Below are positions 12,767 to 64,000 of a stretch of DNA of 64,000 nucleotides, in pieces (the stretch's first letter is position 1; every line of letters starts with the position of its first letter). The stretch is taken from positions 25,862-89,861 of the forward strand of contig UQAI01000001.1 in assembly GCA_900538885.1 (NCBI GenBank), written 5' to 3'. The notes under the pieces were generated by a model. It did no database searches, was not told the origin of the DNA, and saw only the letters and a program-made list of their open reading frames with translations. The DNA comes from an uncultured Mollicutes bacterium (GTDB lineage Bacteria > Bacillota_I > Bacilli_A > ML615J-28 > CAG-313). Both the position numbers and the translations under genes were made by a program.

Positions 12767-12850
12767 CAGAGCATACTTCGTATCAATAGACAAAATGAGA
12801 AAAAAGTGTTATAATTATTGCATAATTTATTCGTTTTCGGAGGGCATAAT

Positions 12851-13042: not shown

Positions 13043-13045
13043 TTT

Positions 13046-16000: not shown

Positions 16001-16213
16001 CTAAAAATTATTAAAGATGAGATAGACCAAAAAGTTTACGATAGGCATGATATCTTGAGAAAAGATGTTTACTTTGAGCAAACAGTTATGGTACATATCA
16101 ATAATGGTATTGATAGATTAGGCTTTGAAAATACTAGGGAAGATAGATTGTTTATTCAATCAAGACTAAGCACCCAGTATTTAAATCAATACCATAATAC
16201 ATATGCAGCATAA
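13046..16213 (+). CDS. hsdR: Type I restriction enzyme R subunit (HsdR)
   Basis: HsdR N-terminal nuclease domain, SF2 helicase motifs TQGSGKT and IIDEAHRG, 1055 aa. Confidence 0.9.
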   Translation: MASGFNEATRVQMPALVHLQRLGYTYVGKITEDQAGVVYDPDTNILIKVFKEQFCKLNPGHEGEAEQVLKDIRIELDNDDLGRSFFKRMQMVSPVKIIDFDNIQNNVFHYTAEFTCKRDQDEFRPDITLFVNGLPLCFIEVKKPNNKGGLIAESNRMNNQRFPNKKFRRFINITQLMIFSNNMEYDTLGGIVPVQGAFYCTASRNKSFFSCFREENPGNASVAPYNKNYPYEEIDAVVEKKILSDFNCQVIHTSPEYQTNLNINTPTNRILTSMCSKERLMFLLKYGIAYVKSEREVDGKIESTDQKHIMRYQQMFAALAIREKLDKGLTSGVVWHTQGSGKTALSYHLNHVLTDYFAKQNKVAKFYFIVDRLDLLEQASQEFEARGLVVKTANSRSELMAQFRTNQSLEGNSGANEVTVVNIQRFEEDKEKVTLPDYATNLQRIFIIDEAHRGYKPEGSFLANLFDADPNSVKIALTGTPLLKEERSSWKVFGTYYHTYYYDKSIQDGYTLKVLREPVETSYKEKLSEIYEKLETLVQKKDVQRTQIIEHDVYVKELLRYIISDLKQFRQIQGDDTLGGMIICETSEQARKLFAFFDSIQKELNENASLKSYFKAGLILHDSDDKETRKKTVTNFKKNMTIDILIVFNMLLTGFDAPRLKRLYFGRKLKDHNLLQAITRVNRPYKENRYGYVVDFADIKKNFDETNEAYMKELNRFNDPGEVGEGNETDTFKQVIEDKDALIQQMQEVKQILFAYTTDNAEEFSSEISTIEDKEELLKLKKALVSARDCCNIVRTFGDDELKAKFAAMEITKLPSLISEVQHHIDSINQKEALAESDSTKQLINEAMQDITFKFQMLTEEEMKIISGGQELEDKWKKTIRSFTENEDQEDPEYITLRQAFIERFKEHGFVVESVSQFENYTKELDEILKKLAELQKKNSALLKKYNGDAKYARVHKRIKEENESRKAKGEKPLISEYDVDIMNALKIIKDEIDQKVYDRHDILRKDVYFEQTVMVHINNGIDRLGFENTREDRLFIQSRLSTQYLNQYHNTYAA

Positions 16214-16225
16214 GGAGAGAAATAT

Positions 16226-17848: not shown

Positions 17849-17859
17849 GAGCTGTAAAT

Positions 17860-19116: not shown

Positions 19117-19156
19117 AAAAGCGACTTAGCTCAATTACGAGTTAAGTCGCTATTTT

Positions 19157-19357
19157 TTATTCTGGAATATATTCCATTATATCTTTGAAGTCACAACTAA
19201 GTGTCTTGCAAATTTTGCAAAGCACATCAGTAGTTACATTTTGACCTTTGGTCATTTTAGCAATTGAAGAGGAACTAACACCAGAGAGCTTAATAAGCTC
19301 TTTTTTGTTTAGGTTCTTATCGATTAATAATTTCCATAATTTGTTATAACTTATCAT
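19157..19357 (-). CDS. XRE/Cro-family HTH protein, last gene of the minus-strand three-component operon
   Basis: 66 aa HTH_3 (ELIKLSGVSSSSIAKMTKGQNVTTDVLCKICKTL); 1-bp gap to upstream ATPase gene. Confidence 0.55.
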   Translation of the reverse strand: MISYNKLWKLLIDKNLNKKELIKLSGVSSSSIAKMTKGQNVTTDVLCKICKTLSCDFKDIMEYIPE

Positions 19358-19358
19358 T

Positions 19359-21188
19359 TTATGCTTTCCTTACATTCTTTAAGAAGCCGTATCTACCTTT
19401 GTTTTCTTTTTGAGTGAACTTGTAGATAACAACATCATCGTTAATTTCTAATTCAGGCAATTCGCTGTATTTTGTGTTTTCAATTATAACGATCTGGTCT
19501 GCTGTTTCAAGATTTATTAAATAATCAAAGAATCCTTTTCTAACGTTATCTGAATCCTCATCTTTATCTTCAGGAACTGATAATCCCTTAAGTGGTGAAT
19601 CTAAGAACCAGAAGCAGCCTTTGTTGGCACTTTTTTCTTCTATGTACTTCCTTAAAAGAAGAATAAGCATGGAGTTGGTGAACGCTTTATATCCTTTACC
19701 ACGTCTGATCTTATTCTTATTGTTAACTATTAAATCTAACTTGGTTTCAGTAAAGTCAATAGTACTGATATTTGGGTATTTAACGTCAGTAAAGATTTGA
19801 ACACCGTTATCAATTACATATTGACCTATGATTGAGAATAGAATTTTCTTTGCTTCAAATTTTAGTTTAGGTACATCATCACCTTTTTGGTATTTCTTTA
19901 AGTCTTCTTCAAGATCAACGTCATTTGCTCCTAGTTCATCAATCGCAGACTTAAGTCGAATATACTCTTCATAACTTTGAATTTTTTTCGCAAGTTCTGT
20001 TCTCTTAGGAGTAAGGACTTCATTGATTTTTGTTTTGTTGATTTCTATTGTTTCTTTATAGACAGCAATTAGATCCCCATCATCATCCAATGTATCTTTT
20101 AGCATTGCTGATGTCTCATCTAGTTCATTAAGATTGTTAACAACATTTCTTAGTTCGACTTTTGCAGCTTCGATATAAGAAGTAGGGTTTTTTGGAGTCA
20201 TTTCATGGTCACAGTAAGGGCATTTAGATTTTGTTGTCTTGTGGCCTATAGAGACTTCATTATTAACGATAAATGTTAATCTATTAATTTCCTTTTGATA
20301 GTCACTTTTTAATTCTTCATATTTAGAGAATATTAATTCATTTTTTTGTTGTTTCTTTTGAAGAGTCATTAAGTTAAATGATGTAGTGGTATTTTCAGAT
20401 GTTAAGCGTTCAATCTCATCGTTTAACTTTATAAGACTCTCATTTAGTTCTTGAATAACAGTTTCTAATGAAGCTAGGTCAATGCCTGATTGCTTTAGTT
20501 TATCTTCTAAAACTTCCTTCTTTTTAGACATAGCTATTCTATGTTCTGAAATGTAGGCGATTACTGCATTTCTTTTTGCTTTTTTGATTTCGTCAGATTC
20601 ATCTTTTTTTAGATAGTCTTCTAGCGTATTTCCAGTAAGGAAATATATTAATGCAGCAAGATATGTGGTCTCTCCATTTTGTTGAAGAAGTACGGATTTA
20701 GGCTTGTCAGCTTTATCTTCATCAATTAGGAATGTTTTTTTAATCGTTCTCCAAGAAAATCTTTCTGGATCGCCATCAATATTAGAAGGAATCTTAAGGT
20801 CATCCTTTAATCCTAATATCTTAAGCATCAATTTATCTATCGTTTTATTATTTTTTTTACCTTCCTTAAGAACATATTCGCCGCTTTCAATTTCAGGATT
20901 GTCACAAGAAACTGTGGTTTTAGAAGTGCCTTGTACTCTGGTTAGTGTGATGTCACCGTATTGAGTTTCAATTATTAGGGTGATGGTATCAAACCCATCT
21001 GACTCATCGAATGGAGCATGATCGTCATCGTTTTTAGCACCAAGTACATAATCAACGCATTTATAAATACAGGATTTACCAGTATCAGAAGGTCCAGCGA
21101 TAATGGTTAGTTTATTTCCGAATTCAATTTCTGATGGTTCAGCATTTGGTCCGGTAGCAATAAGCTTTTTAAGTTTAATAAAACCCAT
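19359..21188 (-). CDS. Rad50/SMC-like ABC ATPase with central coiled coil and CxxC zinc-hook (LmuB / ABC-3C ATPase-like)
   Basis: Walker A GPSDTGKS at N-terminus, ~250-aa heptad-rich coiled coil with CPYC at its midpoint, C-terminal Walker B/D-loop FWFLDSPLKGLS. Confidence 0.6.
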   Translation of the reverse strand: MGFIKLKKLIATGPNAEPSEIEFGNKLTIIAGPSDTGKSCIYKCVDYVLGAKNDDDHAPFDESDGFDTITLIIETQYGDITLTRVQGTSKTTVSCDNPEIESGEYVLKEGKKNNKTIDKLMLKILGLKDDLKIPSNIDGDPERFSWRTIKKTFLIDEDKADKPKSVLLQQNGETTYLAALIYFLTGNTLEDYLKKDESDEIKKAKRNAVIAYISEHRIAMSKKKEVLEDKLKQSGIDLASLETVIQELNESLIKLNDEIERLTSENTTTSFNLMTLQKKQQKNELIFSKYEELKSDYQKEINRLTFIVNNEVSIGHKTTKSKCPYCDHEMTPKNPTSYIEAAKVELRNVVNNLNELDETSAMLKDTLDDDGDLIAVYKETIEINKTKINEVLTPKRTELAKKIQSYEEYIRLKSAIDELGANDVDLEEDLKKYQKGDDVPKLKFEAKKILFSIIGQYVIDNGVQIFTDVKYPNISTIDFTETKLDLIVNNKNKIRRGKGYKAFTNSMLILLLRKYIEEKSANKGCFWFLDSPLKGLSVPEDKDEDSDNVRKGFFDYLINLETADQIVIIENTKYSELPELEINDDVVIYKFTQKENKGRYGFLKNVRKA

Positions 21189-21190
21189 AA

Positions 21191-21628
21191 TTATTTCTTA
21201 ACTCCTTTCGTTCTATCTTTTAATTTTTGTATCGTAATAGGCTTCATTTCATCTATGATGTTAGAAGCGAATTTTTTATATTCTATAGAGTAATCATCGT
21301 TCATTTCTGACACATATGCCTTACCAGAATCGGTAATTGCGTATATAAAACCTCTATCTGGATTGTTCGTTACAGTAGCAAGACCTCTGAATAATAGTTC
21401 TTTTAGCGAGTTCTTTATAAGCTTGCGCTGTATTGTGAACTCGTTAAGTGGAAATGAGCAGACACCGTTTAAGTTTGATTCACCAAATCCATAATGTTCA
21501 GCATATATGGCAAAGAAGTCCAGACGCGCTATTTCATCTTCGTTTAGATAACTTTGTTTATCTAAAATCATAAGAAGGCGCATAGAAACTTCAAATTCAG
21601 TATTAAAAAGCTTTGTCATTATAGCCAC
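21191..21628 (-). CDS. small alpha-helical middle component (LmuC-like) of the three-gene ATPase system
   Basis: 145 aa, overlaps upstream gene by 10 nt and sits 2 nt from ATPase gene; size and position match the middle component of ABC three-component systems. Confidence 0.4.
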   Translation of the reverse strand: MAIMTKLFNTEFEVSMRLLMILDKQSYLNEDEIARLDFFAIYAEHYGFGESNLNGVCSFPLNEFTIQRKLIKNSLKELLFRGLATVTNNPDRGFIYAITDSGKAYVSEMNDDYSIEYKKFASNIIDEMKPITIQKLKDRTKGVKK

Positions 21629-22581
21629 CTTACCTTTCCGTCATTAACAAGCATGTGGACCATGCCCATTTTCTCTTCAGTTCCTACCATACCATTGCCA
21701 GCAGTAGTGAAATAACTTTTTGAAAAGGTAATAACCATCACTTTATCCATTGTCTTATTTAATTTTTCATAAGCATCAGGAACCATTGAATTTGTATAAA
21801 GTCTTATTGCTTTATAAATCTCGTCTTTCATAGATGAAAATTCCTGTTCACCATCGTAGAAGAAATTTCTAACTTGTCTTAGCACCGTTTCAGCACTATA
21901 AAAGGCTTCACGATGTATTTGTAATTCCATTTGATAAACTGGATGACCATCCAAATCACCTATCGATGATATTGATTCACCAGTCTTTTGCGAGTAAACA
22001 GATAATAGTGCAGTTACATATTCACTTTCCATATCGTCGGGATTATCTGGGACAGTAAGTGCTGGTGGTAGAGTGTATTCAGTTCCACCAATTCTAACTT
22101 TATTGCCTGGAAGGAACACAGCTTTTTTAATAGATGTTTTTCTATTCTTCTCTGAACGCTCTTGAAGTAAATCTGCAAAGACATTAGCTAATTCTTCAGG
22201 TAAGTCAATACCTGCAAGAGTGACTCCTTTCTTAGCAAAGTTATCAATAAGTAAGCCTATGGCTTCATCAGTCAATTCAGCTGCATCATATACATCTTGA
22301 AAGTACTCTGATGTTATTTTACTTTTTAAATATCTGGCATCCTTAATTGGCATGTCGGTGTCATTTGTTTCATTAAGCAATTTTTCACAGTAGTTTTCAG
22401 ACTTCATTGTTATGTCATTAAGAATTTTATTATCGATTAATGAAATATCTGTAAACCAAGTTATTACATCTTGGTAAATAAGACGTGCACTTAATCTATG
22501 TGTTTCAGGATCGACTTGTATTTGGCTGGCAAATGCATTCTTAATTAAGTTTATAAACTCGTATATTTTCATTATTATCAC
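21619..22581 (-). CDS. first gene of the three-gene operon; candidate sensor/effector (LmuA-like position) with no recognisable catalytic motif
   Basis: 320 aa, translationally coupled to the next gene; no nuclease/TIR/Sir2/protease signature visible by eye. Confidence 0.4.
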   Translation of the reverse strand: MIIMKIYEFINLIKNAFASQIQVDPETHRLSARLIYQDVITWFTDISLIDNKILNDITMKSENYCEKLLNETNDTDMPIKDARYLKSKITSEYFQDVYDAAELTDEAIGLLIDNFAKKGVTLAGIDLPEELANVFADLLQERSEKNRKTSIKKAVFLPGNKVRIGGTEYTLPPALTVPDNPDDMESEYVTALLSVYSQKTGESISSIGDLDGHPVYQMELQIHREAFYSAETVLRQVRNFFYDGEQEFSSMKDEIYKAIRLYTNSMVPDAYEKLNKTMDKVMVITFSKSYFTTAGNGMVGTEEKMGMVHMLVNDGKVRWL

Positions 22582-49996: not shown

Positions 49997-52288
49997 ATGA
50001 AGTCACAGAATCAATTTACAATCTATTCATTGAATGATGTGGCGACTCAATCAACTGCTCCAGAAAATCCATATAAAGGTCAATTATGGGTGGATACTTC
50101 AAAAACTCCACCAGTAACAATGGTCTATAATGGCACAAAATGGGTTGAACAGAATGGAACTGATACTATTAGATCATCAGTAAAAACAGTTGAAGAAAAG
50201 CAAGCAGAGTTCAAGACAAATCTCGATGGATTAACAAGTACAGTGGGTACTCAAACTAAAACAATAGAGACCATTGAATCTAATATTGATGGAATACAAG
50301 AAGATGTGACTTCTATTGAAAGTGAAGTATCAACTCTAAAACAAACTGCGACTAACATTTCTGCAGAGGTATCAAAGAAAGCTGATAGCGCATATGGTAA
50401 CTCAAGCTCATCATTTGGATGGAAACTTGATAGTAGCAGTTTTGAACTTTATTCAAACAAGAAAACAGTAATGAAAGCCACCTCAACAGGGCTTGATGTG
50501 ACAGGTAAAATTACCTCAACTGAAGGTTCTATTGGTGGCTTTACTATTTCAGATAAAGGAATATATAAAGGCGTAACATCTTTTAGTGATACAAGCCATA
50601 ATGGTGTATATGTTGGAACAGATGGTATTAGAGTAGGTCCTAATTTTACAGTAGATCCTACAGGAACTGTCACTGCAGTAGGCCTAAAGATTAACCTAAC
50701 AGATACACAAAAGACTGAACTAAAAGGCGAAAAGGGCGATACTGGTGCAACTGGTAGTCAAGGTCCTAAAGGAGATAAAGGTGATACTGGTGCAACTGGT
50801 GCTACGGGCTCACAAGGACCAAAAGGCGATAAAGGGGACAAAGGAGCAACAGGAAGTCAGGGACCAAAAGGAGATACAGGATTAACTGGTCCACAAGGCC
50901 CAACTGGTGCAACAGGGCCACAGGGTCCTACTGGTCCACAAGGTCCAACTGGTGCTACAGGACCGCAAGGTCCAGCTGGTTCAGATGCAACTGTTAATTG
51001 GACTAATATTTGTAGTGCTTTAGCAGGTTCAAAAAACTCTGAAGGTGCATCAAGAGGCATATATACAAGTGGTGGATATGTGTATGTTTTGGCAGATGCT
51101 ATTGATGCTACATGGGTGAATTCAGGTATTCTTTCTGCTCTCCAAGGAAAAATTGGTGGTTTCACTATTGACTCAAATAGACTTTATGCAGGAACTCCTG
51201 GCTCAAGCAGTGGAATTGAGTTATCTTCAGTTGGCTTAATTGCATATAAGTCAAACAACCAAGGAGTAGCTTCGTCATATGCAGTAAGCAAAATAACAGT
51301 CAATAAAGCAACAAATCTTACTGTTTATATTCGTTCTTATGCTGAGTCTAGCTATGACTATACAATGATTTCAAATCCAAATGCTTCATCGTATCCTACT
51401 TCTTATTCAAGTAGTTATGTAAAAGCTCATACAAGATCAAATCAAAACAGTAGTTCAGCCTTAGCTGGTTATACAAAAGTTGAGTACTATGGTTTGAAAC
51501 AAAACGACTATATTTATATCGTTTATAGGAAAGATGGAAGTGCAGATTCTGGAACTGATACTGGCTATCTTTTGATTCCAGAAACAACAGATATCTCAAT
51601 TTCAAATGTTGGCGCTACTCATTATTTTGTAAGAGATTCGGCATTTGATATTAAAGGTGCATCAATTAAGGTAGGTGCAAATTTTAGCGTTGATAGTACT
51701 GGCGCAATTAAATCAACTAGTGGAACTATTGGAAATCTAAGCATTACAGGTAGCGGTTTAACTTACAACGGTTCTTGGGCGTCTCATTTTAGTATCGGTT
51801 CGGAATCATCTGATTCAAGAATGCCTACTTATGCAATATTTGCAAGAACGCAAAGAATCGATGACTGTATTATGGGATTTAAGAATACCTCTTATGGTGA
51901 AAACTTCTGGGTTGAATTCAAACCAGATGGATATTGCACATACATGTCTAGTGATGCTGAAGATGCAGTAATGACAGGTAAGATACCATATAACTATCTA
52001 GATAAAGTCTGTTGGTTGCATTCACCTCTTGGATCATCACATACTGGAAGCGATGCAACTTGCCCTCAAATAATCGTCTTTAATGCTTCTGTAAGTAATG
52101 GAAGTTATCAAACTTACGATTTATCTGCCTATGGAATACATGAGATTATTGGAGCTCAACTAACTGAAAGAGATACGCCATCAACTGGTTCAAATAACCA
52201 ATGGTTCTCAGTAAGTGGGACAAGCATTACTGTTAGAAATACCACTGGTGGTAAAAAGACATATTCATTATTAGTCATCGCAGTTTAG
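49997..52288 (+). CDS. tail fibre protein with collagen-like triple-helix repeats
   Basis: ~30 consecutive G-X-Y triplets ([25 protein letters not shown]...GPQGPAGS). Confidence 0.65.
50700..50990 (+). repeat. collagen-like GXY-coding tandem 9/27-bp repeats inside the tail fibre gene
   Basis: periodic ggt/gga-nnn-nnn codon structure visible in DNA. Confidence 0.8.
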
Positions 52289-52297
52289 GAGGTACGT

Positions 52298-52648
52298 ATG
52301 AAGAAAGTAAAAATAAACAAAGACGGCTTTTTAGAAAGCATATACATTAATGATGCCACCATTGAGATCGAGGTGGATGATGAACTTTATGAAACACTCA
52401 TGTGCTGTAAAATCGGCAAGAATTGGAAACAAGAAGACGGTGAGTTTCATATGGTAGAACTTTTAGATGAACAGGTTATTAGAGAAAGAAGAGAGGTTGA
52501 ATGCTTTAACTTAATCGATAATCGATCACCTCTTTGGTGGAGTCATTTATCTGAAGAAAGGCGAAAAGAGCTAGATGCTTGGTATGAGGCTTGGCTAGTT
52601 GCAACCAAAACTAAAATCATACCTGAAAAACCTACGTGGTTAAATTAG
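52298..52648 (+). CDS. hypothetical phage protein
   Basis: 116 aa, GGAGG RBS. Confidence 0.3.
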   Translation: MKKVKINKDGFLESIYINDATIEIEVDDELYETLMCCKIGKNWKQEDGEFHMVELLDEQVIRERREVECFNLIDNRSPLWWSHLSEERRKELDAWYEAWLVATKTKIIPEKPTWLN

Positions 52649-52656
52649 GAGGACTT

Positions 52657-52923
52657 ATGGATTTAGCACAAACAATTATTACTATTTCATCTGTTATAAC
52701 GGCTCTTGGAGTAATATTCGGAGTCGTTTTTACTATCTATAGATGGTATCTCAAAAACGAGAAACAAGATGATTCAATAAAAGAAATAAAGGCGGAACAA
52801 AGCATTCTTACAAAGGGTGTACTTGCATGCCTTAAAGGGCTTCATGAACAAGGGTGCAATGGACCTGTCACTCACGCAATTGAGGAAATTGAAGAACACA
52901 TAAATAAACAAGCTCATAAATAG
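52657..52923 (+). CDS. small membrane protein, possible holin-like
   Basis: single N-terminal TM helix followed by a charged C-terminus; located in the lysis region. Confidence 0.35.
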   Translation: MDLAQTIITISSVITALGVIFGVVFTIYRWYLKNEKQDDSIKEIKAEQSILTKGVLACLKGLHEQGCNGPVTHAIEEIEEHINKQAHK

Positions 52924-52935
52924 GAGGTATTCAAA

Positions 52936-53310
52936 ATGAATGAGATTTTACTTAATGTTTTATCGGTTTTACTAACTGCAGTTATTTTGCCTTTGATATC
53001 TATTGCAGGAACTCAACTTATAAAATTCATCAATTCAAAAATCAAGAATAATGAATTAGTTAAACAGCTAACAACAGCAACTACTATCGTGACAAATGCT
53101 GTAAGAGCGGTATTTCAAACTTATGTTGATAGCCTTAAGAAGAGTGGTAACTTTGGAAAAGAAGCTCAAATTGAGGCTCTAAACAAGGCTAAAGAGCTAA
53201 CACTTGCTCAGCTAAGTGAAGAGGTTAAAGAGTACATCACTAAGAACTATGGCGACATCAATACTTGGCTTACAACTCAGATTGAAGCAACAATTAACTT
53301 GATAAAATAA
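52936..53310 (+). CDS. holin (LL-H / phi-LC3-like family)
   Basis: 124 aa; N-terminal TM helix then long amphipathic hydrophilic tail; last gene before the terminator. Confidence 0.5.
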   Translation: MNEILLNVLSVLLTAVILPLISIAGTQLIKFINSKIKNNELVKQLTTATTIVTNAVRAVFQTYVDSLKKSGNFGKEAQIEALNKAKELTLAQLSEEVKEYITKNYGDINTWLTTQIEATINLIK

Positions 53311-53319
53311 ACAAATTAA

Positions 53320-53356
53320 TCCCTGATTTCCTTTTTGGAGTCAGGGACTTTTTTTG
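53320..53356 (+). terminator. rho-independent terminator (tccctga-N14-tcaggga + T8)
   Basis: seen in sequence after the holin gene. Confidence 0.75.
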
Positions 53357-53432
53357 TTTGCAGATTTATTTTTGGACTGCTAAGTAGTATAATATAGGTG
53401 AAAGATAAATTAGAATTTGTGAGGATGATAAG

Positions 53433-53927
53433 ATGGTCAATATAACAGATGTAAGACAGATTCTTCAATTCGCAATAGATGCGGAGATTAAAGTCTTTCT
53501 TGATGGCGGCTGGGGTGTAGATGCACTTCTTGGATATCAGTCAAGAAGCCATAACGATATTGATATTTTTGTAGAAAAGAAAGATTATCAGAATTTTATA
53601 GAGATAATACAAGCTAATGGATTTTATGAAATTAAGATGGAATATACAACATTGAATCATACTGTATGGGAAGATGCGAAAAACAGAATTATTGATTTGC
53701 ATTGTTTTGAATATACAGGCAAAGGTGAAATTCTTTATGAGGGGGATTGCTTTCCGTTAGAAATTTTTTCAGGTAAAGGAAAAATTGAGGAGATAGAGGT
53801 TTCCTGTATTGAACCATATAGTCAAGTAATGTTCCATCTCGGATACGAGTTTGATGAAAATGATGTACATGATGTGAAGTTATTGTGTGAGACATTTCAT
53901 ATCGAAGTTCCAAATGAGTATAGATAA
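53433..53927 (+). CDS. Lnu(A)/ANT(2'')-family nucleotidyltransferase (candidate lincosamide/aminoglycoside nucleotidyltransferase)
   Basis: FLDGGWGVDALLGYQSRSHNDIDIF matches Lnu(A) WLDGGWGVDVLTGKQQREHRDIDIDF and AadB GGGWAIDARLG...HDDIDL; C-terminal FHLGYEFDENDVHDVKLL matches Lnu(A) FHSGYDLTETDHFDIKNL; 164 aa. Confidence 0.6.
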   Translation: MVNITDVRQILQFAIDAEIKVFLDGGWGVDALLGYQSRSHNDIDIFVEKKDYQNFIEIIQANGFYEIKMEYTTLNHTVWEDAKNRIIDLHCFEYTGKGEILYEGDCFPLEIFSGKGKIEEIEVSCIEPYSQVMFHLGYEFDENDVHDVKLLCETFHIEVPNEYR

Positions 53928-53957
53928 CGACAAATTCCTATTTAACGAGCAGTTATT

Positions 53958-53992
53958 CCCTCAATCCTTAATTGGAAAGAGGGGTCTTTTTT
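53958..53992 (+). terminator. rho-independent terminator (CCCTC-AATCCTTAATTGGAAA-GAGGGG + T6), copy 1 of an identical pair
   Basis: 27-bp core identical to 56802-56828. Confidence 0.75.
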
Positions 53993-54105
53993 ATTTATCT
54001 CCAATATTATTGGATTATTGGATTTTTTGGATAATTTGTGATATAATGATTTAACTAAAACCGATTTTATGATTTTAGCTAATATAATAATTCGGAGGCA
54101 CGATT

Positions 54106-56784
54106 ATGAAAAAAATTGGTAGATTTATTGTTTTATCTATTTTTATGATGTCAGTTATCTTTATGACTGGTTGTAGCAACAACACTCCTTATATTGGAGA
54201 AAATGGAAACTGGTGGGTTGGCGAGTCTGACACTGGGGTTCCGGCACAAGGTGAAAAAGGTGATAGTGGCGAAAAAGGTGACAAAGGAGATAAGGGTGAC
54301 AAAGGAGATAAAGGTGACACTGGGGATTCAGTAACTGTTGTTTCAGTTAAAAAAACAGGAACTGAAGAAAACGTCGATACATATACAATCACTTTCTCTG
54401 ATGGAAATACTTCAACATTTACTGTTACAAATGGTGCTGATGGCGAATCAGTTAATGTTGAATCAGTAACTAAGATTGGTTCTGATGGATTAGTTGATAC
54501 TTATAAAATAATGTTTTCTGATGGTACTGAATATACTTTTACAGTAACTAACGGAGCTGATGGCGAGTGCATAACAATTGAATCAATTGAAAAAACTGGT
54601 TCAGATGAATTAGTTGATACTTACACAATTACATTATCTGACGGAAACAAATTCACATTTACCGTTACTAATGGAAAAGACGGATTAACTCCTTATATTG
54701 GTCCTAATGGCAACTGGTGGATTGGCGATGAAGATACTGGCGAATTCGCTTCTTATAACTATGAAACTAGAGATATTACTGATGGATTAACATTTACACC
54801 TATGACCATAAATGGAAAAGGTGGTTTTGTTGTTACTGGTTTTGATCCTGTTGTTGCATACGGCAGTGAAATTTATAATCTTTTAGATAACTATCCAGAA
54901 CAATACGCGTCAACTTATGGAATTATTAATATTCCTGATTATTTAGGTACAACTCCTGTTATTGGAATCAAAGCTGAAATGTTTAAAAACGTTGATTATA
55001 TCGGCAAAGTTTCACTTTCAAGAAATACAGTTTATCTTGGAGATAATGTTTTTAATACTTGCTCAAATTTACAAGAAATTGATTTTAATGGAGCACCATT
55101 AGAAAAACTTCCAGACTATGCTTTTTATAAAACAAAACTTCAAAGCATTGATTTACCTGAAACTTTAGAAACTTTAGGTGCATATTCTCTTGCAAATACT
55201 AAATTAAAATCTATTGAATTACCAAATTCATTAACGAGATTAGAAAGTCATGCTTTATATGGAAATACTATAAAAGATATTGATATTAATAATGTTACTT
55301 ATTTTGCAGATTATTCATTATATGGAATTCATGGTAATCCTATTTATTTAACGAATGATGTTGAATATGTTGGTAGTTACGCTTTTGCTGGAACTTATGT
55401 TTATATCGAACAGGAAACAATCCCTACAACTTGGGAAAGCAATATTGCAGGTACTAGTACGTATTATGGTGGAATTGTTACTCCTAATTGTTTAATTAAT
55501 GATGAGTATATTTACTCTAAGAACGGAAATGAAATAACAGTATTAAATTATATAGGAACTGATAAACGAATTGAAATTCCTAGTTTAATTGATTCTCTAC
55601 CAGTTACAAAAATTGGATACGGTTTCAACTCTGTTAGTGAAATTGGACTTAATGTTTATGATAATATTTATACTGAAGAAAGTGGCGAAAACTATTTCAG
55701 TTATATGGTAAGAGCAGAACAAGTAGTAATTCCAAATTCAGTAAAAGCAATTGATTTAGGAGCATTCAATAATTTATTTACTACAATTTATATTCCTTCA
55801 AGCGTAGAAAAAATAAGCACTTATGCTTTAATCATTGACAATGATGACTTGTCATCAAACTTTATGATTTTTGAAGCTAATTCATATCCTACATTGATTA
55901 AAGGTTGGGTAGATGGCGAAAATGAAGGCGAAATTGATGGTGCACTATGGTTTGATGACGAAAACTATATTTGCTATTATCGCAATATCAAAAATACAAA
56001 ATGGGAAGATGTTTATTTTAATGAAGAAACAAATTCATACTATATTAAAGATTTATTTGGTTATACTTTAATTGCTTATATGAACCATGAAGTTGGTAGT
56101 AAAATTGTAATCGAATCAACTTTCAATAACGAAACTGTTCATACTATTAGAAAAGGTGCTGTTTATGGATTCTTTAATCCTAAATCCTTAATCATAGAAG
56201 ATGGAATTAAAAAGATTCAAAAGTATGCGTTTATGATGTGTGCAGACTTCAATTATGCTTATATTCCTAGCAGTGTAACAACAATTAATGCCTATGGATT
56301 TGCTGATGTTTGTTATAGATTCTATACAAATCACACATCAAAACCAGATGAATGGGATACACAATGGGCTGGTTCTTCATCTAGTTATACAATTACTTAT
56401 AAAACTGAATTAGGTGAGATTCCTACAATATCTTTTGATGGAAAGTATGAATATGCAGTTCTTGATGATGGAACAGTAAGTCTAGTTAAGTATTTGGGTT
56501 CTTCATCAACATCTACAATTAAAGTTCCAAGAACAATTGATGGATATACAGTAACTGAAGTAAAGAGCAATTGTTATTCAATTTCATACTCTTCTACAGT
56601 TTACATTTATATTCCTAAATCAATTCTTGTGTTAGAAGAAAATGCATTTTATCGCTCTTACACTTATTATACAACTTATGTTTATTTTGAAGCTGAATCT
56701 GCTTTACCTGGCTATCACTCAAAATTCACCAATACATCTTCTAGCTATTTAACTAAATACTGGAATAGAAGTATCGGATACTAA
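54106..56784 (+). CDS. surface lipoprotein with collagen-like GDK repeats, three tandem ~45-aa repeats and a BspA/internalin-type leucine-rich-repeat domain
   Basis: signal peptide plus lipobox [30 protein letters not shown], repeated TYTITFSDGN.TFTVTNGADGE units, C-terminal LRR periodicity. Confidence 0.7.
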   Translation: MKKIGRFIVLSIFMMSVIFMTGCSNNTPYIGENGNWWVGESDTGVPAQGEKGDSGEKGDKGDKGDKGDKGDTGDSVTVVSVKKTGTEENVDTYTITFSDGNTSTFTVTNGADGESVNVESVTKIGSDGLVDTYKIMFSDGTEYTFTVTNGADGECITIESIEKTGSDELVDTYTITLSDGNKFTFTVTNGKDGLTPYIGPNGNWWIGDEDTGEFASYNYETRDITDGLTFTPMTINGKGGFVVTGFDPVVAYGSEIYNLLDNYPEQYASTYGIINIPDYLGTTPVIGIKAEMFKNVDYIGKVSLSRNTVYLGDNVFNTCSNLQEIDFNGAPLEKLPDYAFYKTKLQSIDLPETLETLGAYSLANTKLKSIELPNSLTRLESHALYGNTIKDIDINNVTYFADYSLYGIHGNPIYLTNDVEYVGSYAFAGTYVYIEQETIPTTWESNIAGTSTYYGGIVTPNCLINDEYIYSKNGNEITVLNYIGTDKRIEIPSLIDSLPVTKIGYGFNSVSEIGLNVYDNIYTEESGENYFSYMVRAEQVVIPNSVKAIDLGAFNNLFTTIYIPSSVEKISTYALIIDNDDLSSNFMIFEANSYPTLIKGWVDGENEGEIDGALWFDDENYICYYRNIKNTKWEDVYFNEETNSYYIKDLFGYTLIAYMNHEVGSKIVIESTFNNETVHTIRKGAVYGFFNPKSLIIEDGIKKIQKYAFMMCADFNYAYIPSSVTTINAYGFADVCYRFYTNHTSKPDEWDTQWAGSSSSYTITYKTELGEIPTISFDGKYEYAVLDDGTVSLVKYLGSSSTSTIKVPRTIDGYTVTEVKSNCYSISYSSTVYIYIPKSILVLEENAFYRSYTYYTTYVYFEAESALPGYHSKFTNTSSSYLTKYWNRSIGY
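54376..54705 (+). repeat. three tandem ~135-bp intragenic repeats in the lipoprotein gene
   Basis: near-identical protein units; DNA periodicity visible. Confidence 0.7.
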
Positions 56785-56802
56785 TTAAAATGTGGATCAA
56801 AC

Positions 56803-56836
56803 CCCTCAATCCTTAATTGGAAAGAGGGGCTTTTTT
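56803..56836 (+). terminator. rho-independent terminator, copy 2 of the identical pair
   Basis: CCCCTC-AATCCTTAATTGGAAA-GAGGGG + T6. Confidence 0.8.
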
Positions 56837-56986
56837 AATGATTAGCAAAAAAATAAAGAAAATGTTTTCATAGATGTTTTGCCTAGAGTTTGAGAAAAAT
56901 CAGCCTATTTTGGGATAGTATTACAGCTCTCAGGTTAACAGCTTTTTTCTTTTTTCTCAAAAAATGAAGTGCTCTTCAAGAGGTCG

Positions 56987-57016
56987 ATTTGACACCTAAA
57001 AATTAAGTGATATACT
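56987..57016 (+). promoter_or_regulatory. sigma-A-like promoter TTGACA-16-TATACT upstream of the 57071 gene
   Basis: consensus -35 and near-consensus -10 seen in sequence. Confidence 0.45.
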
Positions 57017-57070
57017 ACAGGTGTAATTACAAAAAAAGTAGGCTTACTTTAGAAAAGGAGCGTTGGAAAA

Positions 57071-57265
57071 ATGAAAACATTAAATCTTACTGAACAACAG
57101 GTTATTGATCTATTATCATTGGTTGAAGAAGAAATCAGATACCTTACAAATGAGGCTATTCCTTCATGTGATGATGATCCAGAAGATTTGGCCATTATTG
57201 ATAGAGAAGGATTCATTAAGTCATTAAAGGGTATGGAAGATATCAAGAAGCAACTTTCTGAATAA
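57071..57265 (+). CDS. hypothetical small acidic protein
   Basis: 64 aa, AAGGAG RBS; terminator hairpin 57291-57323 follows. Confidence 0.35.
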   Translation: MKTLNLTEQQVIDLLSLVEEEIRYLTNEAIPSCDDDPEDLAIIDREGFIKSLKGMEDIKKQLSE

Positions 57266-57339
57266 ATTAAGTAATAATTAATCATTTTATTAAGCTTTAG
57301 AGTGAAATCTAGAGCTTTTTTTATTTTCTGAATTCAAAT

Positions 57340-57380
57340 CCCGAACTTTTGACACGATTTTCGGTCCTTAGACTTGAGGA
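57340..57380 (+). promoter_or_regulatory. ECF-sigma-type promoter-like element CCGAACTT-N16-TCCTTAGACTTGAGGA (copy 2)
   Basis: about 35/42 identity to 23691-23732; spacer contains TTGACACGATTT also found in the junction repeat family. Confidence 0.4.
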
Positions 57381-57391
57381 GGTATGAACCT

Positions 57392-57634
57392 ATGAATTTA
57401 AAAGAACAAATAAGAACCTTAAGTCAAAAGGGTTATGGCTATAAGAAGATAGCTAAAGAATTGAACATTTCAATTGGATCAGTAAGAAACGCTTTAGTTG
57501 AGACACCAAGCGATGAGGTGTGCAAGAACTGCGGAAAGAAGCTAAAGTTTGTTGTTGGTAAGAAAAAGAAGACATTCTGCTGTGATAGCTGTAGATACGA
57601 TTACTGGAACAAACAAAGAAGGGGTGGCAAGTAA
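57392..57634 (+). CDS. small HTH plus C4 zinc-ribbon DNA-binding protein preceding the recombinase pair (possible regulator or directionality factor)
   Basis: YGYKKIAKELNISIGSVRNAL HTH and CKNCGKK...CCDSC; GGAGG RBS. Confidence 0.45.
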   Translation: MNLKEQIRTLSQKGYGYKKIAKELNISIGSVRNALVETPSDEVCKNCGKKLKFVVGKKKKTFCCDSCRYDYWNKQRRGGK

Positions 57635-57635
57635 T

Positions 57636-57851
57636 ATGACTCCTTTGGAAAGATATATGGCTTCAGTTAAGGTTCTTGAGAAGATGGTTAAGGAAGGCTT
57701 GATTGATGAAAAAGAGTACATGAAAGTCGAATCGTTCCTAGCTAAAAAACACTGTATCAAACCTGACAGCATTTACCGTTCAAATCACTTGCTATTTCAG
57801 AGAAATAGAGTGATAGATAGTAATGCAAAAAAGGAGGCAAATAATGGATAG
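57636..57851 (+). CDS. small protein with SHOCT-like C-terminal motif
   Basis: 72 aa; GLIDEKEYMKVESFLAKK resembles the SHOCT motif. Confidence 0.3.
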   Translation: MTPLERYMASVKVLEKMVKEGLIDEKEYMKVESFLAKKHCIKPDSIYRSNHLLFQRNRVIDSNAKKEANNG

Positions 57852-59187
57852 AAACATAATCAAAATTGATGCAGAAAAGCAATTGAAATCCAGAATTAGG
57901 GTTTGCGCTTATGCTCGTGTTTCAAGAGATAAGGATGCGATGTTTCAATCGCTGTCAGCTCAGGTTAGCCATTACAACAAGATGATTAACAGCAACCCAG
58001 AATGGCAGTTCAAGGGAGTCTATGCGGATTATGCATTTTCAGGAACAAAGGAAGATAGACCGGAATTCCAAAAGATGCTGGAAGCCTGCAAAGCTGGTGA
58101 GATTGATTTAATTATCACAAAATCAATTTCAAGGTTCGCCAGAAACACAGAAACAGTGCTTAAAGTAGTTAGGGAATTAAAGGCTAGGGATGTAGATGTT
58201 TACTTCGAGGAACAAAAGATCCATACGATATCATCGGATGGTGAGTTCATGCTTAGCGTGCTTGCTGCTTATTACCAAGAGGAAGCCAGGTCGGTTTCAG
58301 AAAATATGAAATGGCGAATTAAGAAAGATTTCAGTCAAGGCATCATGTGGGGTGGCAAAGATAACTACGGTTACAAATATGACATCGATAAGAAGACGTT
58401 CATTGTAGTTCCTGAAGAGGCTGCTGTAGTTAAGCGAATCTTCGAACTATACATTGCTGGAGCAGGATTTCAAAAGATATCCAGCATCCTGAACTTGGAA
58501 GGCATAAAACCAATGACTGCAAATGAGTGGAGCAAGAATAACGTGACAGCCGTCATAAGCAACTCAAACTACACAGGCGACCTAATCCTTCAGAAGACAT
58601 ACCGCAAGGATTACCTATCAAAGAAAAAATGCAAGAACAACGGTGAGCTTCAGAAATACCTTGTCGAAGAGAACCATGAGCCAATAATCACTAAAGAGAT
58701 GTTTGAAAAGGCACAGAAAATCAGAAATGAGAGAATTATGAAGTATGACATTAAAACCAGAAAGGCAAAGAATAACTACCCTTTCACAGGCATTCTTAGA
58801 TGCGGATGCTGCGGTGGAGCATATCATCACAAGACGACAAGGTACAACTTAATCTGGATTTGCAGAACCTACAACACCAAAGGGAAAGGCTTCTGCTCAA
58901 GAAGCAAGCAAATAGATGAACGCAAGCTTTATGATGCGATTAACCAATACTTCGGTTGGGATAAGTTCAAACAAGATAAGTTCCTAGAGAAGGTTGAGAA
59001 GATTATAGCTAATCCAGGGAATGAGCTAGAGATTCACCTTAAGGATGGAACGGTTGACAAAATCTATTGGAATGACAGAAGCCGAAGCGAGGCATGGACT
59101 GATGATATGAAATCTAAAGCTAGAGCTAAGGCATTTAAACAAAACGAATTAAGAGGAGGGAACAACAGATGGCAAAAGTCAAAGTAA
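57844..59187 (+). CDS. large serine recombinase (CcrA-like size)
   Basis: N-terminal resolvase domain with catalytic-serine region VCAYARVSRD, recombinase domain, C-terminal Cys-rich zinc ribbon; about 448 aa. Confidence 0.8.
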   Translation: MDRNIIKIDAEKQLKSRIRVCAYARVSRDKDAMFQSLSAQVSHYNKMINSNPEWQFKGVYADYAFSGTKEDRPEFQKMLEACKAGEIDLIITKSISRFARNTETVLKVVRELKARDVDVYFEEQKIHTISSDGEFMLSVLAAYYQEEARSVSENMKWRIKKDFSQGIMWGGKDNYGYKYDIDKKTFIVVPEEAAVVKRIFELYIAGAGFQKISSILNLEGIKPMTANEWSKNNVTAVISNSNYTGDLILQKTYRKDYLSKKKCKNNGELQKYLVEENHEPIITKEMFEKAQKIRNERIMKYDIKTRKAKNNYPFTGILRCGCCGGAYHHKTTRYNLIWICRTYNTKGKGFCSRSKQIDERKLYDAINQYFGWDKFKQDKFLEKVEKIIANPGNELEIHLKDGTVDKIYWNDRSRSEAWTDDMKSKARAKAFKQNELRGGNNRWQKSK

Positions 59188-60740
59188 TACCACAAACGAT
59201 AAATCCGATGACAATGTCAGTTATTGGCTCAACTCAAAAAAGAAAAGTTGCTGCTTATGCCAGAGTAAGCACCGAGAATGAAGAACAACAATCATCATAT
59301 GAAGCACAGGTCAAATACTACACTGAGCATATAGCAACCAGACCAGACTGGGAATTCGTGAAGGTGTATTCTGATGAAGGTATATCAGGAACCAACACAA
59401 AAAGAAGAGTTGGCTTTAGATCGATGATACAGGATGCAGTTGATGGGAAGATTGACCTAATTCTAACCAAATCAATATCGAGATTTGCCAGAAACACCTT
59501 AGACAGCATATCCTACATTAGACAATTGAAAGCTGCTGGAACTGAGGTCTATTTTGAAAAGGAAAATTTATGGACATTCGATTCAAAGTCTGAAATGGTG
59601 CTGTCTATGCTTAGTGCTATTGCTCAAGAGGAAAGCCGAAGCATCTCAGAGAACGTTAAGATGGGCAAGAGATGGCAAATGAAGGAAGGAAAGGTTACAA
59701 TTCCTTGTAAGGCGTTCTTAGGATACCAAAATATAGATGGTAAGATTACGATTGATAAGGATGAGGCAATCATCGTTAGAAGAATTTACTCAATGTTCTT
59801 AAAGGACGGTATGACAAGAAAGGCTATAGCAGATACTCTGAAGGCTGAGGGAATTCCTACTCCATCAAAGAAAGGCTGCAACTGGACCGTCAACAACATT
59901 CAGTCGATACTCACCAACGAGAAGTACAAAGGCGATGCATTGCTACAAAAGGTCTATTGCGACGATTATCTTGAGCACAAGGTAAAGAAGAACAACGGTG
60001 TGTTACCTCAATATTACGTTGAGAATTCGCATCCTGGAATCATCAACAAAGAAGAATGGACAATGGTTCAGGAGGAGCTTAAGAGAAGAGAAGGCATCAG
60101 ATACTCATACCAAACAAGCAATCCTTATTTAGCAAAGCTTAGATGCTCGGAATGCGGACACTTCTTCGGAATCAAGGTATGGCATTCCAACTCAATCCAC
60201 AGAAAAGAGGTATTGCAATGCAACGGCAAATACAAATGCGGATGCAAGTCACCTAATCTTAGCCAAGATGAAGTCAACAGGAAGTTCATAGAAGCCTACA
60301 ACCAAGTGATGGACAACAAGAAAGGCTTGATAGAAGACACCAAAGAGGTCATAGAAATGCTAACCTCAACTGAGAAAATAGACGCGAAGGTACAAGCATT
60401 AACGAATGAGATGGAGGAGGTTCAGCTATTGGTAGAGAACCTAATTCACGACAATGCCAGAAGGAACCAAGACCAAGAAGAGTACGAAAGACACTATCAA
60501 GAGTTGGTAAGTCAATTCAATGCAGCTAAAGCTAAAATGAAATCCTTGCTAGAGGAAAAACAATCCAAACTAGACAGGATTGAAATACTTAATGCTTTCA
60601 TTGTTTCCTTAGAAGATAAAGAAGCCGTCATAGATGAATTCTCAACTGATCTATGGAACTTAATGATTCAAGATGCATTAGTCAGCGAGGATGGAACAAT
60701 TAAGTTTGTATTCAAGAATGGAACAGAAATTACAATGTAA
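59169..60740 (+). CDS. large serine recombinase (CcrB-like size), overlapping the upstream recombinase gene by 19 nt
   Basis: AAYARVSTENEEQQSS catalytic region, recombinase domain, zinc ribbon CSECG...C, C-terminal coiled coil; 523 aa. Confidence 0.8.
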   Translation: MAKVKVIPQTINPMTMSVIGSTQKRKVAAYARVSTENEEQQSSYEAQVKYYTEHIATRPDWEFVKVYSDEGISGTNTKRRVGFRSMIQDAVDGKIDLILTKSISRFARNTLDSISYIRQLKAAGTEVYFEKENLWTFDSKSEMVLSMLSAIAQEESRSISENVKMGKRWQMKEGKVTIPCKAFLGYQNIDGKITIDKDEAIIVRRIYSMFLKDGMTRKAIADTLKAEGIPTPSKKGCNWTVNNIQSILTNEKYKGDALLQKVYCDDYLEHKVKKNNGVLPQYYVENSHPGIINKEEWTMVQEELKRREGIRYSYQTSNPYLAKLRCSECGHFFGIKVWHSNSIHRKEVLQCNGKYKCGCKSPNLSQDEVNRKFIEAYNQVMDNKKGLIEDTKEVIEMLTSTEKIDAKVQALTNEMEEVQLLVENLIHDNARRNQDQEEYERHYQELVSQFNAAKAKMKSLLEEKQSKLDRIEILNAFIVSLEDKEAVIDEFSTDLWNLMIQDALVSEDGTIKFVFKNGTEITM

Positions 60741-60848: not shown

Positions 60849-61109
60849 ATGAATAGAAAGCTTAAAGTCTATGAACAATCTATGGGTGGGGGAAACTACA
60901 CTCAAGTTCCAACGATTTTATTAAAGGGAAAGTGGCTTGAAGAAGCTGGGTTTAAAGCCGGCGAGTACGTTGAGGTTGTTTGCGATGGTGACAAGATTAT
61001 TCTTACGAAAACTAGTGCACCAGAGCCAAGAAAGTCACTCGAAGATAGAATCAAGAATTTAAGCGAAAGTCAAAAAAAGAAACTGTCTGAGATGATTGAT
61101 AAATTATAG
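60849..61109 (+). CDS. SymE-like (AbrB/SpoVT-fold) toxin-family protein
   Basis: LKGKWLEEAGFKAGEYVEVVCDGDKIILTK matches the SymE core motif L.G.WL..AGF..G..V.V. Confidence 0.5.
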   Translation: MNRKLKVYEQSMGGGNYTQVPTILLKGKWLEEAGFKAGEYVEVVCDGDKIILTKTSAPEPRKSLEDRIKNLSESQKKKLSEMIDKL

Positions 61110-62793: not shown

Positions 62794-64000
62794 CTACGCT
62801 TTTTCATTTGGCAAGTCGACTTTGCCGATACCATTATAGAAGATATCGATTCTCATTTGTCTATGGCCATCAACTTTCTCAGCCTTATGAACGATAACCT
62901 TCTCTATGAATTCTCGTGCTATTTCATGAGTAAGCTCATCAATTCTTGTGTATTTTTGGACTAGTTCCATGAAATGGGAAGTAGATGCTGTTTGCTCATT
63001 AATGGCTTTGATTTTGCCTTCTAACTCAGCAATCTTTTCTTTTAGAGAAGTTTGCTCCTGCTCATAATTCTCATTCATCTTTTTGAATCTATCTTCAGAG
63101 ACAATACCTGATATTTTATCCTCATAAAGGTTTTGGATGATTGAATCAAGTTTCTCGATTCTGGCTTTTGATGCGTTTAGCTCCTTATTGAGAAGATTAA
63201 GTGATTTCGTGATATTCGCTGTCGACTCACTGGACACAAGCTTTATGAATTCATCCTCGTGTTCCTTTGCAAACTCAATATGACGCTTGATATCTTCAAG
63301 GACGATTTCATCGATAATCTTAATTCTTATTTGATGAGCTGAGCACAATCCTTGTCTCTTACGGTAAGTAGAACAACAATAATAATATGATTCTGGTTGA
63401 AGTGATTTAGTTCTGCAAACATATAGTTTCTTGCCACAGTCCGCACAATATATCATTCCAGATAGAACAGGCATTTCACCCATTGGTGTATTAGCCCTTT
63501 TTCTACCTTCCTTTAGCCTTTGCACTATGTCAAATGTCTCTTGATCGATAATAGCTTCATGAGTGTCCTTGATAATTACCCATTTTGAAGGTGGGTTAAT
63601 AAAGGACTTTTTGTTTTTGTAGGACTTTCTGCCAGTTTTGAAATTAACCGTATGGCCTAAGTATTCTTGCCTTGATAGGATATCTGAAACGACTGACCAA
63701 TCCCACCAATAAGGGTCTATGTTGTCCTTGCTATGGGTGTTAGGTATTCCTTTAGCATTCTTGTAAGAAGTAACATTAAGCACCTTTCTATCAGTTAAGA
63801 TTGTCGCAATCTTAGATGGCCCATTTCCTTGTACTGCTAAGCGGAATATCTCTTTAACAACCTCGGCAGCCTCTTCATCGATAAGCCAGTTGTATTTGTT
63901 GTTAGGGTCTTTCTTATAGCCGAACACTGGAATAGGAGCGGTAGGTTTTCCTGAATCACTCTTAGCTTTGATAACGGCTCTAATCTTCTTTGAGGTATCT
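62794..64000 (-). CDS. large serine recombinase, N-terminal part beyond window edge
   Basis: recombinase domain plus zinc-ribbon (CADCGKK...C) and C-terminal coiled coil; reading frame remains open to position 64000. Confidence 0.8.
   Translation of the reverse strand, partial: DTSKKIRAVIKAKSDSGKPTAPIPVFGYKKDPNNKYNWLIDEEAAEVVKEIFRLAVQGNGPSKIATILTDRKVLNVTSYKNAKGIPNTHSKDNIDPYWWDWSVVSDILSRQEYLGHTVNFKTGRKSYKNKKSFINPPSKWVIIKDTHEAIIDQETFDIVQRLKEGRKRANTPMGEMPVLSGMIYCADCGKKLYVCRTKSLQPESYYYCCSTYRKRQGLCSAHQIRIKIIDEIVLEDIKRHIEFAKEHEDEFIKLVSSESTANITKSLNLLNKELNASKARIEKLDSIIQNLYEDKISGIVSEDRFKKMNENYEQEQTSLKEKIAELEGKIKAINEQTASTSHFMELVQKYTRIDELTHEIAREFIEKVIVHKAEKVDGHRQMRIDIFYNGIGKVDLPNEKA

Follow-up and report, generated by a model that had tools for sequence, protein, structure and literature searches.

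A terminator-bounded gene for a predicted leucine-rich-repeat lipoprotein, present or absent in a gut prophage, next to a single-gene slot holding lnu(C)

We analyzed a 64-kb stretch of DNA from an uncultured Mollicutes bacterium (contig UQAI01000001.1; hereafter the window) that holds an apparently complete prophage, and focused on one gene of its cargo region, which encodes a predicted lipoprotein of 892 amino acids (aa) with leucine-rich repeats (LRR) and stands between two copies, T1 and T2, of a 27-nucleotide (nt) terminator. Since the one-copy site of sister phages joins the outer flanks of these two copies, the LRR gene is a presence/absence polymorphism bounded exactly by the repeat. 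It is probably a lysogenic-conversion moron whose product is a BspA-type LRR surface protein anchored by lipid, with recombination between terminator copies accounting for gain or loss of the gene, and as such it is a further example of the known moron or lysogenic-conversion class; of the two, greater novelty lies with the adjoining slot, currently occupied by the lincosamide nucleotidyltransferase gene lnu(C). Neither this phage, the LRR cassette, nor the slot was found described in the literature, coverage of which was incomplete, so that this is weak evidence of novelty. Comparison loci are cited below by their L numbers.

One-copy and two-copy terminator sites

Sister phages from three gut samples and independent assemblies (L040, L042, L043, and L045) carry the same tail, holin, and recombinase genes as the window prophage and no LRR gene. 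Each has a single 27-mer that combines the left flank of T1 (AACGAGCAGTTATT) with the right flank of T2 (TTTTTTAATGATTAGC), the layout of this one-copy site being AACGAGCAGTTATT, then the 27-mer, then TCTTTTTTAATGATTAGC, and the region of the downstream 64-aa gene directly follows this slot terminator. The single copy is of the T1 type (GGGG-TC), and the crossover maps to the shared CTTTTTTA tail, the junction sequences being GTTATT-T-TCTTTTTTAATGATT for the one-copy site and GATCAAAC-T-(T)CTTTTTTATTTATC for a possible circle. An earlier reading of the window made from its letters alone (the sequence-only reading) had proposed recombination within a terminator, and the one-copy site with its T1 left and T2 right flanks supports this, whether as gain or as loss.

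In the window, T1 (53958-53984, + strand, GGGG-TC type) serves as the terminator of the upstream slot and forms the left end of the LRR cassette, and T2 (56803-56829, + strand, GGGG-C type) serves as the LRR gene's own terminator and forms the right end, with a period of 2,845 bp from one to the other. That identical 27-bp terminators flank the gene had also been noted in the sequence-only reading; both are hairpins followed by a T-run and the 27-mer is exact in each, but the second copy had been placed one position too early, at 56802-56828. The 27-mer (CCCTCAATCCTTAATTGGAAAGAGGGG) has exactly two + strand copies in the window and no further copy there at up to 3 mismatches, against a chance expectation of 0 in 100 shuffles, and the match extends, apart from one indel, into the T-run (GGGG-TCTTTTTTA in one copy, GGGG-CTTTTTTA in the other), giving a repeat of ~36 nt. 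T1 and T2 fold at -13.1 and -15.9 kcal/mol, respectively (z ~ -2.2), and are absent from a simple terminator scan because of an AA/AA internal loop in the hairpin.

The 27-mer is rare elsewhere and associated with surface-protein genes. A degenerate pattern covering both variants matched in 12 of 185,579 species genomes, and the 26-nt core (CCCTCAATCCTTAATTGGAAAGAGGG) is found in only two of those 12 (L033 with the full 27-mer, L032 with a final A instead of G), where it lies 3' of a gene for an LRR_5 protein (L032) and of one for a Flg_new lipoprotein (L033); the exact 27-mer had no match in IMG/VR and none in the JGI metagenomes. It is thus not a very common terminator throughout genomes, which, together with orthologs of the protein at core-genome positions, was what the sequence-only reading had named as refuting its claim. 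These data bear on whether T1 and T2 are recombination joints at all, or arose as a transposase's target-site duplication or as independent copies of a terminator common in the lineage. Such an origin could draw on the insertion sequences (IS) and elements resembling miniature inverted-repeat transposable elements that recur just after T1 (L004, L044, and L026) and on the existence of related terminator variants (T0 and the L001/L004/L224 types, described below), but we regard it as extremely improbable: a repeat of 27-36 nt far exceeds known target-site duplications, the cassette has neither terminal inverted repeats nor a transposase, exact copies of the 27-mer are very scarce in public data, and the one-copy site of the sister phages joins the outer flanks precisely. 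A transposase-made duplication was accordingly rejected on the repeat length, the lack of terminal inverted repeats or transposase, and the precision of the one-copy site.

Comparison with other loci assigns T1 and T2 to different units. T1 is the terminator of the single-gene slot, since the LRR-less phages have only T1 with the same left flank. T2 appears to be the LRR gene's own, because an independent, 90%-identical LRR homolog at L224 carries the same 3' untranslated region (TAATTAAAAYGTGGAWCAAAC) and a GGGG-C hairpin identical at 23/27 positions, with divergence setting in right after the T-run. Further relatives include T0 (53320..53347, + strand; TCCCTGATTTCCTTTTTGGAGTCAGGGA plus T-run, 11 pairs in the terminator scan), which follows the holin gene, is a diverged member of the 27-mer family, and shares 84% identity across 38 nt with the terminator 3' of the chromosomal LRR homolog (L001-L004). 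The L001-L004 homologs themselves terminate in another variant, CCCTGATTCCTTAATTGGAGTTAGGGA, with compensating stem changes, and at L004 an IS-truncated remnant of a terminator (GG-TCTTTTTTTT) lies upstream of the promoter region. To judge from these sequences, the polymorphism is the outcome of recombination between members of a small terminator family, with the window allele produced by insertion or the one-copy allele by deletion.

In the model that we favor, the 2,845-bp unit would be an autonomous cassette in the cargo region of a temperate phage that is integrated into the genome of an uncultured member of the Bacilli from the human gut. It would be made up of a single 892-aa gene, a predicted promoter of the extended -10 type in front of it, and a terminator belonging to the gene. 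Gain may have come about when two closely similar terminators recombined, for instance through Campbell-type entry of a one-terminator circle, and loss may occur by recombination between the T1 and T2 copies. Morons, or lysogenic-conversion genes, located between the lysis module and the integration end are an established concept for temperate phages of Gram-positive bacteria. The moron status assigned in the sequence-only reading was borne out by the position of the gene between the holin and the recombinase module, by related phages that differ in cargo, and by near-identical phages without it. Like other morons, it is a single extra gene with predicted promoter-like and terminator elements between two phage modules, present or absent in near-identical phages, and the modules on its two sides are adjacent in related phages (L040, L042, L043, and L045). 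Unlike in morons generally, duplication of the terminator makes the joints visible and a one-copy site occurs naturally, and the duplicated terminator doubles as the terminator of a neighboring exchangeable-gene slot. Moron gain or loss thereby has a clean natural example, in which the terminator duplication preserves both joints and sister phages supply the one-copy allele.

The T-rich stretch 3' of T1 (53984-54001) is a recurrent insertion site for mobile DNA. An IS30-like element (L004, at 1897) and an IS with DDE_Tnp_1 (L044, at 677) are inserted after T1, as is a 66-bp element at L026 (672-737) with 19-bp terminal inverted repeats and a flanking 14-bp duplication.

The predicted lipoprotein and its relatives

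The LRR gene (54106..56784, + strand) is the sole open reading frame (ORF) between T1 and T2, with a ribosome-binding site (RBS; GGAGG) at 54094-54098 and a predicted promoter, read by eye, at 54018..54047 (TTGGAT, 18 nt, and the extended -10 element TGATATAAT) that is conserved upstream of the homologs at L004 (93.8% identity from 53983) and L224. All its coding parts run on the + strand: a predicted signal peptide with a candidate lipobox (aa 1-23), a TPYIGENGNWW motif (54184-54249), a run of nine GXY triplets (aa 49-75, 54250-54330), three 40-aa beta units (54331-54690), a second motif PYIGPNGNWW (54691-54756), and an LRR_5 solenoid (~54922-56775). Pfam LRR_5 (PF13306) is matched over four stretches at 140.8 bits, against a gathering cutoff of 27.7. 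The N-terminus (MKKIGRFIVLSIFMMSVIFMTGC) has MKKIGR, a hydrophobic stretch, and a lipobox-like MTGC, the Cys of which is conserved in at least 90% of 80 homologs, with VTGC or ISGC in close homologs.

The AlphaFold2 model has a mean predicted local distance difference test score (pLDDT) of 86.1 and a predicted template-modeling (TM) score of 0.70, and is low only at the signal-peptide end and the GXY run. Top Foldseek matches, at probability 1.00, are BspA-type LRR surface proteins (4gt6, 4fdw, 4fs7, PcpA 4cp6, and TpLRR 6mlx), for which global TM-scores are low because the query is ~2x the target length, and the sequence search returned the same PDB entries. Other than LRR_5, FNIP alone exceeded its cutoff in the Pfam scan (24.1 bits, cutoff 21), Collagen matched below threshold, and no internalin-type domains appeared; the HupY/LrrG adhesin model (NCBIfam NF047961) scored 53.2 bits, below its cutoff of 1250. 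From sequence and model together, the product looks like a lipoprotein signal fused to a fiber-like stalk and a BspA-type head.

Several features of this protein had been described in the sequence-only reading, and most stand in modified form. The candidate lipoprotein signal with MTGC is there and its Cys conserved, but the Met at -3 is non-canonical; the LRR domain is of the BspA but not of the internalin type; and there are three tandem repeats, of 40 rather than ~45 aa each. These units are mutually 60-65% identical in aa and 65-68% in nt, and Tandem Repeats Finder reported only the 9/18/27-nt GXY periodicity, the 120-nt repeats being too diverged for detection, which makes a change in copy number by recombination unlikely. 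The suggested intragenic length variation was found only in the GXY run, five triplets of which are missing from a 90%-identical homolog (the only length variation seen), and not in the phage, where all complete copies of the gene examined encode 892 aa.

The closest known company of this protein is the BspA-type LRR_5 surface proteins (Tannerella forsythia BspA, Treponema LrrA/TpLRR, pneumococcal PcpA, and the gut-commensal proteins 4gt6, 4fdw, 4fs7, and 4h09), with which it shares LRR_5, sequence and fold matches, and a predicted surface location. It differs from them in its N-terminal lipobox anchor, in place of choline-binding repeats, LPXTG, or a type IX secretion signal, and in a tail-fiber-like N-terminal stalk module and a prophage-borne gene. 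We propose that the prophage expresses the lipoprotein during lysogeny, lipid-anchored on the outer face of the membrane, where it might act as a ligand-binding surface protein in adhesion or in host or cell interaction, which would make it a lysogenic-conversion gene.

Homologs number >3,000, and both NGNWW motifs are near-invariant, as is the lipobox Cys. The closest non-phage homolog (L001, 88% aa identity) lies in a chromosomal neighborhood with a hexapeptide acetyltransferase, TrkH/TrkA, and a two-component system, and a 92%-identical, frameshifted one (L004) is flanked by IS elements. The exact 892-aa protein was read on 11 contigs, with identical phage neighbors in each. An abundant BspA-like LRR lipoprotein family of uncultured gut Bacilli thus moves on a temperate phage, and such mobility is relevant to strain-level differences in adhesion and colonization.

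A defensive role was also considered, in which the lipoprotein acts in superinfection exclusion by blocking the adsorption or DNA entry of competing phages. Ltp-type prophage lipoproteins, as in Streptococcus thermophilus TP-J34, confer superinfection exclusion, Ltp being small and encoded between the integrase and repressor genes. Ltp is likewise a prophage-encoded, lipobox-bearing surface protein (expression from the lysogen being predicted here), whereas the window protein has 892 aa with an LRR solenoid, and the two are likened by lipoprotein and prophage features, not by sequence or domains. Exclusion would suit a prophage-encoded lipoprotein in a cargo region where relatives hold defense genes at the same place (type I restriction-modification and large ATPases) and where McrBC lies further downstream in the LRR-less sisters, and the tail-fiber-like N-terminal module could mimic or bind phage fibers. 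We nevertheless consider it unlikely, given that, of >3,000 homologs, the few whose surroundings were examined (L001-L005) lie in chromosomal or IS-flanked DNA and not in phages, and that the closest solved relatives are commensal cell-surface LRR proteins and the pneumococcal adhesin PcpA.

The same N-terminal module raises the question of a virion component, that is, an accessory receptor-binding or tail-fiber protein whose signal peptide is incidental. The module (IGxNGNWW, GXY, and 40-aa beta units; 54184-54756) has >350 IMG/VR relatives (L143-L222 among the loci) and occurs inside many phage tail-fiber-like proteins, and the gene comes after the tail and lysis genes and shares their strand. 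Such a role is nonetheless very unlikely, in view of the lipobox Cys kept in the homologs, the gene's own promoter-like and terminator elements, its location outside the structural operon and beyond the holin, and closest homologs without phage neighbors; the existence of otherwise identical phages without the gene and of 88-92% homologs outside phages makes the gene dispensable for the virion.

The reading of the gene as a lysogenic-conversion moron gained or lost at the terminators has points to weigh against it. The direction of the change is not polarized, as a T1-T2 deletion yields the same one-copy site; moreover, the terminator variant of L001/L004 differs at 7 positions, so that an exact match between T1 and T2 presupposes a donor with the identical terminator or a conversion afterwards. 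The predicted promoter is a consensus match only and was not listed by the simple promoter scan, which missed the LRR-gene and slot promoters because the -35 is weak. As for the collagen-like run described in the sequence-only reading, the GXY triplets are there, but they score 16.8 bits against the Pfam Collagen (PF01391) threshold of 27.2, and the model has pLDDT <50 at aa 50-72. In IMG/VR, the N-terminal module is always internal to tail-fiber-like proteins, with a lipobox in 0 of 42 checked, and its tail-fiber likeness may leave some room for a virion-related role.

The lnu(C) slot upstream of T1

The LRR cassette shares its left joint with a single-gene slot that, like its occupant lnu(C), was absent from the sequence-only reading. 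The slot platform (53388..53418, + strand) consists of a -10 box (TATAAT, 53388-53393) and a left boundary (GATAAATTAGAATTT, 53404-53418); then come lnu(C) (53433..53927, + strand), a right cassette boundary (AAATTCCTATTT, 53932..53943, + strand), the platform sequence AACGAGCAGTTATT, and T1, so that the lnu(C) unit is bounded by 53388/53404 and 53943/53948. Lnu(C) matches NCBIfam NF000141 over its full length (1-164) at 351.6 bits against a cutoff of 300, and the gene has 93.4% nt identity to annotated streptococcal lnu(C); the exact protein was found in 412 collection blocks, including unrelated chromosomal contexts. A clinically relevant lnu(C) thus resides inside an apparently functional prophage, in a single-gene exchange slot.

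Slot loci outside the window (L024, L026, L040, L023, L001, L010-L019, and L057-L136) were compared with this arrangement. Their format is GATAAATTAGAATTT, followed by RBS and ORF and closed by AAATTCCWATTT, with one promoter-driven gene, and the right-boundary consensus of the cassettes is AAATTCC(A/T)ATTT. One phage backbone was seen with four cassette occupants and an empty state: besides lnu(C), there are an 81-aa ORF at L024, a GNAT gene in the L040 group, and other content at L023, where the contig ends, and the slot at L026 is empty, reading GATAAATTAGAATTT directly joined to AACGAGCAG. At other loci, the same -10, a 9-10 nt spacer, and the left boundary stand upstream of >20 different ORFs. 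Scanning metagenomes for the promoter together with the left boundary returned 86 loci, at least 25 of them real slots, with many chance matches in MORN-repeat genes. The real slots have at least three platform types and >20 different cargo ORFs, and among the genes carried in slots are lnu(C), a CatA-like gene, GNATs, an APH-family gene, and genes for hexapeptide acetyltransferases, lipoproteins, and membrane proteins. L087, L129, and L078 have arrays of at least two cassettes, and L026 and L096 have empty slots. The hexapeptide acetyltransferase beside the L001 LRR homolog (L001 3934-4733) is bracketed by the same slot boundaries.

The lnu(C) cassette itself recurs, at 99% nt identity and with the same boundaries, in unrelated gut chromosomal sites that adjoin tRNA-Leu, tRNA-Tyr, or tmRNA genes, amid short tRNA 3'-end repeats and 20-bp-spaced iterons. 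Recombinase-less mini-elements of ~1.1-1.3 kb with the lnu(C) slot lie next to tRNA-Leu, tmRNA, or tRNA-Tyr (L010 7550-9050, L011 7633-8806, L012 6969-9075, and L013 7314-8927), with flanking tRNA 3'-end repeats and internal 20-bp-spaced iterons (CTACGGAACGATAG and TGTACGCA). At L125 and L099, the slot is 263 nt downstream of a serine-recombinase pair resembling that of the phage. No tyrosine recombinase was found beside any slot examined, the neighbors being serine recombinases (L125 and L099), chromosomal genes, and tRNA or tmRNA genes, and among these slots no recombinase was assignable to the exchange. In a streptococcal ISSag10-type lnu(C) (L223, MN270258, 2490-3060), TAATTAGAATTT followed by GTGGAG stands directly after the transposase stop codon as a left-boundary remnant, which suggests capture of the streptococcal gene from a slot of this kind.

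Tentatively, the slot could be a previously undescribed integron-like cassette system of low-GC gut Firmicutes that works without IntI and attC, and the 27-nt terminator may close it. The -10 promoter and the boundary GAT-AAATTAGAATTT would form a fixed expression slot, in which promoterless single-gene cassettes ending in AAATTCC(A/T)ATTT are exchanged, and the slots would be carried by temperate phages that have paired serine recombinases and by miniature elements next to tRNA or tmRNA genes. The ISSag10 lnu(C) of streptococci would then be a captured cassette, and the LRR gene would indicate that the slot terminator itself can act as a recombination joint for larger, self-expressed cargo. 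With integron cassettes (attI/attC/IntI), the slot shares a fixed insertion point with a promoter upstream of it, cassettes of a single ORF that lack a promoter, conserved boundaries, empty sites, arrays of at least two cassettes, and resistance genes among the cargo. Unlike integrons, it has no adjacent IntI-type integrase and no attC hairpins, its boundaries are 12-nt near-palindromes (AAATT-NN-AATTT), its hosts are low-GC Firmicutes, and the slots sit on phage-like elements and beside tRNA or tmRNA genes. If the slot is indeed a dedicated recombination system, it would constitute a new phage-carriable route for resistance genes in Firmicutes.

Two further ideas about the slot were tried and rejected. 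A leader-peptide attenuator upstream of lnu(C) (GTG-MKDKLEFVRMIRWSI) was dismissed because its reading frame is unconserved on other platforms, and a serine-recombinase crossover in the middle of the palindromic 12-nt boundaries because their central dinucleotides are not the same (AG left, CC right).

Prophage setting and neighboring genes

The prophage has genes for replication, methylase, packaging, tail, and holin, followed by the cargo region, the 64-aa gene, a helix-turn-helix (HTH)/Zn-ribbon gene, and two serine recombinases. The holin gene (52936..53310, + strand; phrog_13712, E 7e-28) is the last recognizable gene of the lysis and structural side before the cargo, and no endolysin gene was recognized beside it in the window (52298-53310) or in the relatives L047-L056. 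Downstream of the cassette, the phage backbone resumes on the + strand with the 64-aa gene (57071-57265), the HTH/Zn-ribbon gene (57374-57634), and two adjacent, overlapping large serine recombinase genes (57823-59187 and 59169-60740; Pfam Resolvase/Recombinase/Zn_ribbon_recom) with weak Ccr-like NCBIfam matches. This HTH/Zn-ribbon and paired-recombinase module is kept at the right end of the phage family.

The same phage was found at 100% identity in several human-gut assemblies. Its IMG/VR relatives (L047-L056, 60-79% holin identity) carry quite different cargo, or in L047 none, between holin and recombinase genes, so that this interval is a cargo hot spot. In L047, the closest IMG/VR relative without slot and LRR gene, a GC-rich, structured-looking spacer of ~170 nt (6380-6640) lies between the holin and the recombinase module, for which Rfam gave sub-threshold noise only; Rfam had no match in window 52000-58000 either. 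In a megablast search of GenBank phages with 52200-58000, lnu(C) in records from Streptococcus was the sole match, and no repeats of the tRNA-Leu 3' end that could serve as prophage attachment (att) sites were found in the window.

The first part of the window (1-12 kb) is chromosomal, with DUF885, trigger factor, ClpX, Lon, RNase R, and tRNA-Leu genes. The exact trigger factor is labeled as from a "Mollicutes bacterium" or "Bacilli bacterium" metagenome-assembled genome, and a host with such a label is possibly reduced or wall-less. After tRNA-Leu(GAG) and just upstream of the prophage, a defense island (12454-22581) comprises type I restriction-modification (13046-19116) and, on the minus strand, ABC-3C-type genes with a CTD6 domain (19359-22581). 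On the other side, an 86-aa SymE_toxin-like ORF (60849-61109, positioned by offset from L006) is followed by two unannotated ORFs and, on the minus strand, by a third large serine recombinase gene with DUF4368 (62794-63927). Past this third recombinase, L006 continues into DUF6017, DUF3801, and TraG genes, which indicates that a conjugative element abuts the prophage.

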